A stretch of 10,081 nt of DNA from a virus. Its lineage: Duplodnaviria; Heunggongvirae; Uroviricota; Caudoviricetes. Positions 2,907-10,081 of the stretch are shown piece after piece. The notes beneath the pieces were generated by a model. The model ran no database searches. It had not been told where the DNA came from and saw nothing but the letters and a program-made list of their open reading frames with translations. The DNA is taken from the IMG/VR virus record IMGVR_UViG_2663763286_000006, positions 1-10,081 of that record, one strand, 5' to 3'. Numbering within the stretch: the first letter of the stretch is position 1; the number at the start of each line of letters is the position of its first letter. The position numbers and the translations under genes are program-made.

Positions 2907-3632
2907 CTACTGAATACGCTCAAACTCGATTACCCAAACCCAGGGATTAGCACTCCAGCTTTCTTCGCCGTAGATGGATTCCCACAGGCGCTGGAACGCA
3001 ACCTTGGCCATTGCGAAATCCCCCTTGGGAGTAAGGAATGTTCCCGGGTGATCAGGAAGCAAACTTCCAGCAGGCGGAACGCCCTCATCCCTTGCATCGC
3101 ATTCGCTGATATCGTTCAACCGCTCAACGCGCACGTTGGTAATTTCCACCAGGATGCGTGATGCCCATCGCGGCATGTGAATTGATGGACGCCACCCACC
3201 ATCAAACTTTTCATTCACAGTGTGAGGTTTCCAGTCGGCATCATCGGGTATCGACCATAAACCGTAATCACCAGGCTTTTGCTCACAACTGGCCCGATAA
3301 ATCCTTGCTGCGTTCTTCTCATCGCCACGACAAAGGTTGTCGTTCCAGTCCACACTGCAACCATCTTCATTGCCTAATATCGCCCATGTTTCACGAACCC
3401 AAATTCGATCGCCGACGATACCAAAGGGGCAATTGAAAACACTGCTTACACCATCAGCCCCGTACCACTGAAAACCTGCACCAATTTTTCTAACCATCAC
3501 CGGTGCTTCTGGACCAACTTCCGCAGGCTGATTTTTCATTATCCGCCGCGTCTGCGTTTTCCTTCCTTCGAGGATGGCCCGGACCATCTCATCGTTGAAA
3601 ATCATGCCGCGCTCTTTCACTTCGCCTTTCAT
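2907..3632 (-). CDS. Hypothetical phage protein, possibly ASCH/PUA-like fold (GRKTQTRR motif)
   Basis: Long ORF with an N-terminal …MIFNDEMVRAILEGRKTQTRRI… segment resembling the GxKxxExR-type ASCH signature (weak, from memory). Start placed at the third in-frame ATG (3632), which has AGGGGGA immediately upstream and lies 10 nt after the stop of the small peptide ORF. ATGs at 3668, 3650 and 3605 are alternatives. Confidence 0.5.
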   Translation of the reverse strand: MKGEVKERGMIFNDEMVRAILEGRKTQTRRIMKNQPAEVGPEAPVMVRKIGAGFQWYGADGVSSVFNCPFGIVGDRIWVRETWAILGNEDGCSVDWNDNLCRGDEKNAARIYRASCEQKPGDYGLWSIPDDADWKPHTVNEKFDGGWRPSIHMPRWASRILVEITNVRVERLNDISECDARDEGVPPAGSLLPDHPGTFLTPKGDFAMAKVAFQRLWESIYGEESWSANPWVWVIEFERIQ

Positions 3633-3642
3633 GCATCCCCCT

Positions 3643-3729
3643 TTACCCATGCGCGACGATGCCGCCAAAAGTGATAGAGAACAGCCAGAAATAGATCGCG
3701 GCCATAATGATTTTGAATGCCGTGTTCAT
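3643..3729 (-). CDS. Unannotated small hydrophobic peptide, 28 aa (MNTAFKIIMAAIYFWLFSITFGGIVAHG)
   Basis: Not in the supplied ORF track (too short). ATG at 3729 preceded by AGGAG with an 8-nt spacer. The peptide has a single predicted transmembrane-like core, and its stop lies 10 nt upstream of the next gene start. Confidence 0.35.
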   Translation of the reverse strand: MNTAFKIIMAAIYFWLFSITFGGIVAHG

Positions 3730-3757
3730 ATTTTCAGCTCCTGTGATTGATTGGATA

Positions 3758-3788
3758 CATGCCGCGCCTTGCGGCATGTTTTTATTTT
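3758..3788 (+). terminator. Intrinsic terminator-like hairpin oriented for the + strand (CATGCCGC-gcctt-GCGGCATG followed by TTTTTATTTT)
   Basis: 8-bp GC-rich stem, 5-nt loop and a T-rich tract on the + strand only. It is convergent with the minus-strand operon and lies immediately upstream of the small peptide gene's RBS. Confidence 0.5.
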
Positions 3789-3815
3789 CACTTCCCCTGT
3801 CTTAAAAATCAATAT

Positions 3816-3828
3816 TTATTAGAGCAAT
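3816..3828 (-). repeat. 13-mer junction motif ATTGCTCTAATAA (minus-strand orientation), copy A
   Basis: Exact copy; it overlaps the tandem stop codons (TAA TAA) of the HAD phosphatase gene. Confidence 0.6.
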
Positions 3829-4352: not shown

Positions 4353-4386
4353 GAAAAAAATGCTGGTGGGCGCACTCCACCAGCAT
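4353..4386 (-). terminator. Rho-independent terminator (minus strand): 10-bp stem ATGCTGGTGG/CCACCAGCAT, 7-nt loop, then U7
   Basis: Perfect 10-bp inverted repeat at 4360-4386 followed on the minus strand by TTTTTTT (4353-4359); located between the stop of the 420-aa gene (4407) and the HAD gene start (4334). Confidence 0.65.
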
Positions 4387-4406
4387 TAAAAGTGACACTG
4401 TAACTA

Positions 4407-5669
4407 TCAGCGAACGTAAATAGTGCCGCCGTTCTCTTTTTCCCATGCATCGCTACGTGCATAGCAAACATCGAGAAGTCTTCTTGCCGCAGTTTCCTCT
4501 AAACCCAATTCGACAACCAACTGCTCATGACGGCGGGTAACCACATCAAACAGGGTATGCAGCCCTTTAGTTGCCAGATCATCAATGAATTCCGGTTCGA
4601 ACGGCAGCTCTGCCTCTGCCAACATAACCTCTTGCGCCCACTCAACTCGACGGACCAGTTCCGGGCGGCGGCTTTCCATCTCTTTACAGATCAATTCATG
4701 GAAGAACTCTACCCAACCTTCCGGCTGGAACTCGCGGAAAATGGCCAACGGCTGGAAGTTTGGCATCAACCATTCGTTGATCCGGATATCAATGGCATAG
4801 CCCATGTCGCAGCAGAACTGATAAGCAAAGTCCAGCTTAGAAACGATATAAGGACGCTCGTTATTGAACTCTTTAGGCGATGAGATCCCATAAGCCAGGA
4901 GGCGCGGGAAGAAGGAGATTTGCCCTAACGTCGGATGAAGTTTTCTTGCAGGGAAACGGCGCTCAGTAATGCCATACATTTCCTTCTTGAGCGTCGCAAA
5001 TTTGGCATTCTCATTAACCAGCGCGGTAACCTCTGCTTTTTTATTAGCAAATGCCACGCGCGCTTCGCTTGCATCTTTAATAGTTTTTTTGAGCTGTTGG
5101 TTAAGGTCGGCGACCTGCTTACGCAGTTCCTGTCGCTCGCTTTTAGCTTTGTTATAGCGTTTCTCAAGGTTAAAAGGATCAAGTTTCATGATCTCTTTAT
5201 ATTGAGATTTTAGCGTTGAAATCTGTGAGTTCCGCAGTTCAACCATCGCGGTCATTTCATTGAGTTTTGTTTCCAGCTCAATGCTTATACGTTCGGCATT
5301 ATCAGCACGCTGGTTGGCGTCATGCGTCGCATCGTCGATCGCGTCCTGTTGCTGGCGTTTCAAATGTTCAATTTGCAGCTGAAGCTCTTCAATTTCTTTA
5401 CCCTTCAGACCGAGATCCAACTGCATATTTTCAGCTGCATCTACCAGGGAGTTATGGCTATCAGCTTCTGCGTTATAAACATCAATAAGCTGTGCGTGAA
5501 GCATCTCCGCTGACTGAACCGCATTATCAAAAAAACGCGCTGTGAGGTCATCACAACTAACGCGGCGTTGCGCGGCCCGGATGTTCTGGATAATGGCCGG
5601 GATACCGGCATTCAGGACGTCAGGGATAGATACATTTTCGATTGATTGGTTTTGTGCTGAAGTGCTCAT
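4407..5669 (-). CDS. Large hypothetical protein (420 aa): N-terminal coiled-coil (about residues 60-230), C-terminal globular domain of unknown function
   Basis: Long ORF with strong heptad periodicity and K/E/Q richness (…LQLQIEHLKRQQQDAIDD…ELRKQVADLNQQLKK…), then a Trp/Phe/Cys-containing C-terminal domain. Its start lies 1 nt after the upstream stop (TGAAATG). Confidence 0.6.
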   Translation of the reverse strand: MSTSAQNQSIENVSIPDVLNAGIPAIIQNIRAAQRRVSCDDLTARFFDNAVQSAEMLHAQLIDVYNAEADSHNSLVDAAENMQLDLGLKGKEIEELQLQIEHLKRQQQDAIDDATHDANQRADNAERISIELETKLNEMTAMVELRNSQISTLKSQYKEIMKLDPFNLEKRYNKAKSERQELRKQVADLNQQLKKTIKDASEARVAFANKKAEVTALVNENAKFATLKKEMYGITERRFPARKLHPTLGQISFFPRLLAYGISSPKEFNNERPYIVSKLDFAYQFCCDMGYAIDIRINEWLMPNFQPLAIFREFQPEGWVEFFHELICKEMESRRPELVRRVEWAQEVMLAEAELPFEPEFIDDLATKGLHTLFDVVTRRHEQLVVELGLEETAARRLLDVCYARSDAWEKENGGTIYVR

Positions 5670-9754: not shown

Positions 9755-10081
9755 ATGACTAAAAATACTCGTTTTTCCCCCGAGGTCCGTCAACGGGCAG
9801 TTCGTATGGTTCTGGAAAGTCAGGGCGAATATGACTCACAATGGGCGGCAATTTGTTCCATTGCCCCAAAGATTGGCTGTACACCAGAGACTCTGCGTGT
9901 GTGGGTTCGTCAGCATGAGCGGGATACCGGGAGTGGTGATGGTGGACTCACCACCGCTGAACGTCAGCGTCTGAAAGAGCTGGAACGTGAAAATCGTGAA
10001 CTGCGCCGCAGTAACGATATCCTTCGCCAGGCTTCCGCTTATTTTGCGAAGGCGGAGTTCGACCGCCTCTGGAAAAAATGA
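9755..10081 (+). CDS. IS3-family transposase OrfA (108 aa; helix-turn-helix and leucine-zipper region)
   Basis: [57 protein letters not shown]… followed by a leucine-zipper-like [30 protein letters not shown]. Ends in an A-rich stretch (GGAAAAAATGA) where the programmed -1 frameshift into orfB is expected in this family. Confidence 0.85.

Follow-up and report, generated by a model that had tools for sequence, protein, structure and literature searches.

The stretch at 3643-3788 of the window, by which we mean the whole 10,081-nt piece of DNA that was analyzed, probably holds the control region of a C1-repressed early operon, Op88/OpmgT, in a P1-like phage-plasmid, together with the operon's first gene. 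This is our best explanation of the stretch as a whole, and it includes a hairpin at the 5′ end of the operon mRNA and a small membrane peptide encoded behind it. An earlier sequence-only reading had seen the peptide gene and the hairpin and had proposed a type I toxin facing the terminator of a cis-antisense RNA or, alternatively, a small membrane peptide. The alternative has held up well: by sequence comparison the ORF is a real conserved gene with homologues in four more clades of P1-like elements, and it is under purifying selection.

The pap-pmgT region and its C1 operator

The whole window is a P1-like phage-plasmid, and the 3643-3788 stretch is 97-99.7% identical to E. coli P1-like phage-plasmids and phage P1. 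It is ~97% identical to the P1 pap-pmgT intergenic region (NC_005856 84263-84507), where the same operator, predicted promoter P1pmgT, hairpin and 28-codon ORF are found as in the window. The upstream gene is pap, encoding a PNKP-type HAD phosphatase, and the gene after the small ORF sits in the pmgT position and encodes a 241-aa protein (ATG 3632-3630, minus strand), while P1 instead carries the 309-aa PmgT. As the sequence-only reading had stated, no plus-strand protein gene is near, all plausible gene-sized ORFs around the region being on the minus strand. The sole plus-strand gene in the window encodes a transposase, an HTH_Tnp_1 OrfA of the IS3-family type, which lies at 9755-10081 and runs off the window end. 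The features of the region are as follows.

3812-3828, minus strand: C1 repressor operator Op88/OpmgT, ATTGCTCTAATAAATAT, mapped onto the window from the P1 reference annotation; overlaps the pap stop codon (3821-3819)
3784-3812, minus strand: predicted sigma-70 promoter P1pmgT, with -35 TTGATT at 3812-3807, a 17-bp spacer and -10 GAAAAT at 3789-3784; predicted in NC_005856
3780-3788, plus strand: T-run TTTTATTTT, the complement of the A-rich -10 element and the bases up to the start; P1 clade only
3757-3779, minus strand: stem-loop ACAUGCCGC-AAGGC-GCGGCAUGU, located where the operon mRNA is predicted to begin; on the plus strand this DNA reads as the "terminator" stem
3743-3754, minus strand: C/A-rich leader CCAATCAATCAC between hairpin and ribosome-binding site (RBS); CAATCA(ATCA) is invariant across clades
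3738-3742, minus strand: Shine-Dalgarno sequence AGGAG, 8 nt before the ATG
3643-3729, minus strand: 28-codon ORF and stop (ATG 3729-3727, TAA 3645-3643), encoding the hydrophobic, predicted single-helix peptide MNTAFKIIMAAIYFWLFSITFGGIVAHG
3630-3642, minus strand: RBS AGGGGGA and ATG (3632-3630) of the next gene, 10 nt past the small-ORF stop

The sequence-only reading placed the hairpin immediately upstream of the peptide gene; the region also holds Op88 (3812-3828) and the predicted promoter P1pmgT. According to the P1 reference, OpmgT (formerly Op88) is a monovalent C1 operator; in the window it is a 17-bp asymmetric site that overlaps the predicted sigma-70 promoter. P1pmgT is one of two predicted sigma-70 promoters listed there for the pap-pmgT region. 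The operator is identical or nearly so across all five clades examined (the P1 clade and the four others), which also have in common a -35 of TTGATT or TTGTTT, a 17-bp spacer and a -10 of the form nAnAAT. From these elements, transcription is predicted to start near 3777-3781. Further upstream, a canonical terminator on the gene strand, AATGCTGGTGG...CCACCAGCATT followed by TTTTT (4359-4387, minus strand), lies between a pmgS-like gene (4407-5669) and pap, which suggests that transcription of pap is separate from that of the late genes preceding it.

On its other side the stretch borders variable DNA. The downstream block, pmgT to humD, is known to be hypervariable among P1-like phage-plasmids (variable region 8; PMC9603915), and knockdowns in the pmgT region indicate that P1 does not require these genes (PMC10695390). 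Past the small ORF, the homology to relatives ends abruptly at ~3639, 3577 and 3571 (window 3577-3639), and the first 18-20 codons of the next gene (MKGEVKERGMIFNDEMV...) are common to otherwise different downstream proteins. Because the break points fall just after the ORF and these codons recur in front of differing proteins, the data suggest that cargo is exchanged by recombination anchored in the leader and these first codons.

The 28-codon gene and its homologues

The 28-codon ORF with AGGAG at 8 nt described in the sequence-only reading is confirmed at 3729-3643 on the minus strand. We followed its retention in a P1-clade sample that was anchored on pap rather than on the ORF itself and comprised 80 IMG/VR loci, two genome contigs and a few reference records. 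The motif GGAGC shows no variation across 87 P1-clade loci or in any other clade. An intact ORF of exactly 28 codons is kept in 85 of the 87 evaluable P1-clade loci; the other two have a recombination junction in codon 20. The ORF is also intact in the ~21 loci that have a convergent hsdR behind it, where it is the only gene served by the promoter. Polymorphism within the clade amounts to 9 non-synonymous and 7 synonymous changes, giving a pN/pS of 0.36 (binomial P = 0.04 against neutrality), about twice the value for pap (0.17).

In four more clades of P1-like elements, which come from Salmonella, Cronobacter phage JK004 and metagenome or read assemblies, the corresponding position is taken by homologues of 46-65 aa. 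The order operator, promoter, hairpin, CAATCA leader, GGAGC and ATG is common to all of these clades, being found in Salmonella plasmids, phage JK004 and three further assemblies. In the Salmonella P1-like plasmid, which has an identical operator, a leader with CAATCAATCA and GGAGC precedes a 46-codon ORF, MHTVFKLAMAAFYIWIFTIVFTGIAKATPVNASEVGVRTIYCDLGE; this locus lies just after a pmgS homologue and has no annotated pap. Over the 28 codons that can be aligned between the window and this locus (L090), 14 of 28 residues are identical and 7 codons at conserved residues differ synonymously, with a pN of 0.34 and a saturated pS of 0.86. The remaining members have 53 aa (JK004), 48-65 aa (L096/L104) and 53 aa (L100/L101/L103), with the same synteny throughout. 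M1, K6, A11 and W15 are invariant across clades, and F5 and Y13 are nearly so. Retention, coding constraint and divergent homologues in the same synteny, of which the homologues are decisive, lead us to regard the 28-codon ORF, on sequence grounds, as a genuine conserved small membrane-peptide gene.

AlphaFold, run with the family alignment, places a helix at residues 2-27 of the 46-aa relative (mean pLDDT of 83 and 91 for the first two ten-residue blocks). A hydrophilic tail of 18-37 residues, conserved within clades, follows in all non-P1 clades and is absent from the P1 form, so that the P1-clade peptide appears from the alignment to be a version shortened to the membrane helix. An exhaustive profile search of 1.84 billion representatives returned no clades beyond those already collected, and three matches to long proteins fit the low-complexity tail only. 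Judged from this search, the family is confined to P1-like elements. The peptides had no significant match in Pfam, NCBIfam, PHROGs or PADLOC. We take the peptide to be, most likely, an inner-membrane protein made early in the lytic cycle and directed at some host or membrane target; like many such peptides, it may be toxic if over-expressed.

In every clade the stop of the small ORF abuts or overlaps the next start, as TAA plus 10 nt in the window and as ATGA, TGATG or TAA plus 6 nt elsewhere, which makes translational coupling to the downstream gene plausible. The downstream genes themselves differ between clades. All non-P1 clades have the small ORF, then a conserved ~104-aa gene and then a 161-aa gene, both of which are replaced in the P1 clade. 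The stop of the small ORF and the start of the 104-aa gene (L095 3159-3473; L093 3146-3463; L100 3159-3473; L104 1698-2015) overlap or nearly abut. The 104-aa gene has no Pfam match at E ≤0.001 and just a weak precomputed MarR_2/TrmB hint.

The adjacency of stop and start also fits a rival reading in which the P1-clade ORF no longer matters as a protein and is a truncated remnant, its translation serving to load ribosomes onto the leader, to avert Rho-dependent polarity and to couple translation to the downstream cargo gene. Alternatively, the ORF would simply be decaying. The P1-form stop, at residue 28, lies 4 nt before homology to different cargo breaks (~3639), and the conserved C-terminal tail is lost exactly where the variable region begins. 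Protein databases hold many variants of the 3′ junction of the P1-clade ORF, with read-through extensions, a few frameshifts and junctions at codons 18-20. The P1-clade helix tolerates radical, charged substitutions (G22D, G23D and A11E), and the pN/pS ratio twice that of pap points in the same direction. The tail loss, the helix substitutions and the junction variants together mean that the P1-clade peptide may be only weakly functional as a protein. However, the in-clade pN/pS is still significantly below 1, the 85 intact loci include those without a co-directional gene behind the ORF, and F5, K6, A11, Y13 and W15 are conserved across clades. We therefore consider loss of the protein's role somewhat doubtful and continue to favor a small protein under selection.

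The sequence-only reading called the ORF unannotated. This is correct for the P1 and P7 reference records, of which the P1 reference also lacks the hairpin, but not for SJ46, RefSeq and UniRef, where a 44-aa "hypothetical/membrane protein" is annotated in at least 1000 contigs. The start of this 44-aa model is an ATG inside the hairpin (3775-3777) that has no RBS and lies at or before the predicted mRNA start; in the Salmonella clade, the upstream ATG does not share the reading frame of the ORF. It is almost certainly a wrong start. The GenBank model for JK004 similarly gives 38 aa from an internal ATG (L095 3046), where the conserved GGAGCC-N5-ATG gives 53 aa, and it too carries a wrong start codon. 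We found no paper on this ORF, the hairpin or the transcript, and the P1vir RNA-seq paper is silent on the region.

The hairpin and the T-run

Read on the plus strand, the DNA upstream of the peptide gene is ACATGCCGCG-CCT-TGCGGCATGT (3757-3779) followed by TTTTATTTT (3780-3788). A GC-rich stem-loop of 9-10 bp thus runs directly into a T-run, which in the P1 clade is the layout of an intrinsic terminator on the plus strand. The fold energy is -21.3 kcal/mol (z = -4.2 against shuffles), and the site is among the two strongest terminator-like sites in the window. On the minus strand the hairpin is followed by ATCCAATCAATC and so does not form a sense-strand terminator. The earlier description of a strong hairpin with a T-tract on the plus strand only is thus accurate.

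Both the ORF and the hairpin, whose conservation bears directly on the antisense proposal, are kept in relatives, but the T-run is restricted to the P1 clade. On the sense strand the T-run corresponds to AAAATAAAA, which consists of most of the -10 element GAAAAT and the bases between the -10 and the start. It is absent in L090, L095, L096 and L100-L104, which have GTTTTC, GATTAA, ACTCACC or CATTT at that place. The hairpin, in contrast to the T-run, holds its position: in every clade its 5′ base comes 4-8 nt past the conserved -10 element, and the spacing to both promoter and RBS is fixed.

Because the stems are too unlike for MAFFT alignment, we compared the hairpins by folding each sequence separately on both strands. 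The five clades have five stems that differ in sequence: ACATGCCGC/GCGGCATGT, AGGCCAC/GTGGCCT, AAGGCCAC/GTGGCCTT, GGCCGC/GCGGCC and GGCGGTCGC/GTGACCGCC. Between L100 and L103 there is a compensatory G-C to A-T double change as well as a G.T to A-T change. Stem variants found in L026 (10 loci), L031, L063, L100/L101 and L102 retain a G.U pair in the sense RNA, where the antisense RNA would have an A.C mismatch. In total, pairing is preserved in the sense RNA and lost from the antisense RNA for 6 of 7 stem variants, L064 alone doing the opposite, and in those variants the sense hairpin is more stable than the antisense one by 0.5 to 4.7 kcal/mol. Thus, the hairpin is conserved as a structure rather than as a sequence, and it belongs to the sense RNA. 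Since the T-run coincides with the -10 element, occurs in the P1 clade only and accompanies a stem whose pairing is kept on the sense strand, we read the apparent plus-strand terminator as the mirror image of a 5′ hairpin, an A-rich -10 and the bases after it, and not as the end of a conserved antisense RNA.

These observations bear on the toxin-antitoxin proposal, in which a plus-strand RNA starting in or beyond the ORF would cover the RBS and start codon, end at the hairpin and T-run and so repress a toxic peptide. The peptide is indeed hydrophobic, 28 aa long and preceded by a strong RBS; a canonical plus-strand terminator lies just past its start, and the window has no plus-strand gene that would need one. 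However, no plus-strand promoter reaches 9 of 12 matches. The best, at 8 of 12, is the CATAAT at 3703, whose -35, already noted as poor in the sequence-only reading, has 3 of 6 matches at a spacing of 15 or 19 nt. Codons 8-9, on which this CATAAT lies, are not the same in other clades (the Salmonella clade has GCG ATG). Four sister clades that retain both ORF and hairpin lack the T-run, and the wobble pairs of the stem favor the sense strand. Furthermore, the gene lies directly behind a C1 operator as the first of its operon, which is the position of a repressed early lytic gene and not of a constitutively transcribed toxin. No toxin or antitoxin family was matched in Pfam, NCBIfam or PADLOC, nor any Rfam family at gathering thresholds. 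Taken together, a type I toxin with a cis-antisense RNA is very unlikely.

The P1-clade hairpin with its T-run is nonetheless a textbook intrinsic terminator, and this could exceed coincidence. In ~21 of 85 P1-clade loci a convergent type I hsdR lies directly past the ORF and ends ~80 nt beyond the small-ORF stop; L049 has an intact copy, and IS1 interrupts the gene in L007 and apparently in most others. The P1 record notes similarity to the EcoDXXI and R124/3 hsdR genes, and the same stretch is found downstream of those. The hairpin that comes directly after hsdR lacks a T-run when read in the direction of that gene, so that transcription of hsdR would not reach a canonical terminator before 3757-3788. 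The P1-clade hairpin might thus also act as a one-way terminator that shields the Op88 promoter and operator, as well as pap, against transcription entering from the variable cargo region, notably that of the convergent hsdR, which would cross the ORF antisense. Against this, the T-run is already accounted for by the -10 element and the bases after it and is absent from the other clades, and in the window the downstream genes are co-directional with no plus-strand promoter evident. We regard such an additional role as possible, if somewhat unlikely; it is compatible with the C1-repressed operon as the main explanation.

The association with hsd genes extends beyond phage-plasmids. In many IncF and other conjugative plasmids (324 PLSDB records; L006 2950-3090, NZ_OX637962), a relic of the ORF, cut by IS1 at codon 2-3 and without start, RBS or hairpin, faces a convergent type I hsdR that ends ~80 nt away. 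This arrangement indicates that a P1-derived fragment travels with the hsd cassette. In phage T4, the 26-aa peptide Stp, the 3′-phosphatase Pnk and the type IC system EcoprrI are functionally linked. By coincidence, the small peptide gene described here lies between pap, which encodes a PNKP-type phosphatase, and, in a quarter of relatives, an hsdR of the EcoR124/EcoDXXI group; we claim no sequence similarity to Stp.

The loops of the hairpins raise a further question. Those of the four non-P1 hairpins have nnnCTnnCA in common although their stems differ, which hints at a sequence-specific partner that a pure stability element would not need. Together with the fixed distances to promoter and RBS, this would fit a recognition element, such as a nut/boxB-like antitermination signal, a translational operator or an RNase III site. 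However, the P1-clade loop, of 5-7 nt (AAGGC or AAGGGGC), is unrelated, the likeness of the other loops could reflect shared ancestry among few clades, and Rfam has no match at gathering thresholds. We know of no candidate protein that binds the hairpin. A recognition element is thus quite unlikely in our judgment, and we return to a structural role for the 5′ hairpin.

Between hairpin and RBS, all clades have the invariant C/A-rich tract CAATCAATCA. C/A-rich leaders are known translational enhancers and targets of GcvB. When Rfam was searched to E 10, the only matches were sub-threshold and at chance level, a GcvB-like match (20 bits against a cut-off of 42 bits) and isrK (12 bits). Both mirror the C/A-rich leader and the hairpin, and the GcvB-like match, on the plus strand at 3702-3785, arises because that strand is the complement of the C/A-rich leader. 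Long-range pairing of the hairpin with the 3′ end of the ORF was seen in one fold and was not significant (z = -1.2), and pairing of the loop with the Shine-Dalgarno sequence was dropped on inspection, as it is inconsistent across clades.

Proposed expression and comparison with known systems

From the identity of the locus, the coding constraint on the ORF and the sense-biased hairpin, we infer the following course of expression. In a lysogen, C1 bound to ATTGCTCTAATAAATAT (3828-3812) would block the promoter TTGATT-17-GAAAAT. Upon derepression, transcription would start ~7 nt past the -10, so that the mRNA would open with the hairpin (3779-3757); in read-through transcripts from pap it would be internal. 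By analogy, the hairpin is most likely an mRNA-stabilizing 5′ stem-loop, given the predicted start site, and would be expected to shield the message from 5′-end-dependent decay by RppH and RNase E. The unstructured C/A-rich leader and strong RBS would then drive translation of a 28-residue peptide that would insert into the membrane as a single helix. The gap of 10 nt between its stop and the next start makes coupling of its translation to that of the variable cargo genes probable.

P1 serves as a model phage, and it is by way of this variable region that P1-like phage-plasmids disseminate resistance genes. The C1-controlled Op88 operon appears to begin with a conserved gene that the reference annotation lacks, which gives P1 workers a concrete small protein to study. 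By sequence comparison the gene represents a new, narrow family of putative small phage membrane proteins encoded behind a covarying 5′ stem-loop, and this hairpin marks a conserved boundary at which cargo modules are swapped. For sequence-only scans in general, the locus calls for caution, as the appearance of a toxin with an antisense terminator can be the mirror of an A-rich promoter and a 5′ stem-loop. It is conceivable, though unlikely, that operator, promoter, 5′ hairpin, leader and small protein form a conserved "expression platform" at the edge of hypervariable cargo, with the protein an early-lytic membrane effector in its own right (for example in exclusion, host shut-off or anti-defense) and the P1-clade hairpin also an insulating terminator against type I restriction genes.

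Among known systems, the closest is the Op88/OpmgT operon of P1 itself, in whose reference record both small ORF and hairpin go unannotated; the window differs from it in the downstream genes, with a 241-aa protein and other cargo in place of PmgT. Type I toxins such as Hok, Ldr, Ibs, TisB, ShoB, ZorO and DinQ resemble the peptide in being short, hydrophobic, single-helix products with a strong RBS. Unlike these toxins with their Sok/Rdl/Sib/IstR-type RNAs, the peptide has no family match, antisense promoter or conserved antisense terminator, and its gene is instead the first of an operon behind a repressor operator. Lambda Kil and P1 Icd and KilA are small early phage proteins that act on the host, and MgrB and AcrZ offer a functional analogy as small membrane regulators. 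The P1-like peptide is homologous to none of the five; like Kil, Icd and KilA, it would be a small protein made early after repressor loss, here predicted to be embedded in the membrane. Finally, ompA-type 5′-terminal stem-loops reportedly stabilize bacterial mRNAs, according to work by Emory and Belasco and by Mackie. The element described here differs from these in that its P1-clade form reads as a terminator on the other strand and its 5′ end is a predicted one. It is like them in combining a GC-rich hairpin 0-3 nt from the predicted 5′ end with an unstructured leader, an RBS and compensatory changes in the stem.
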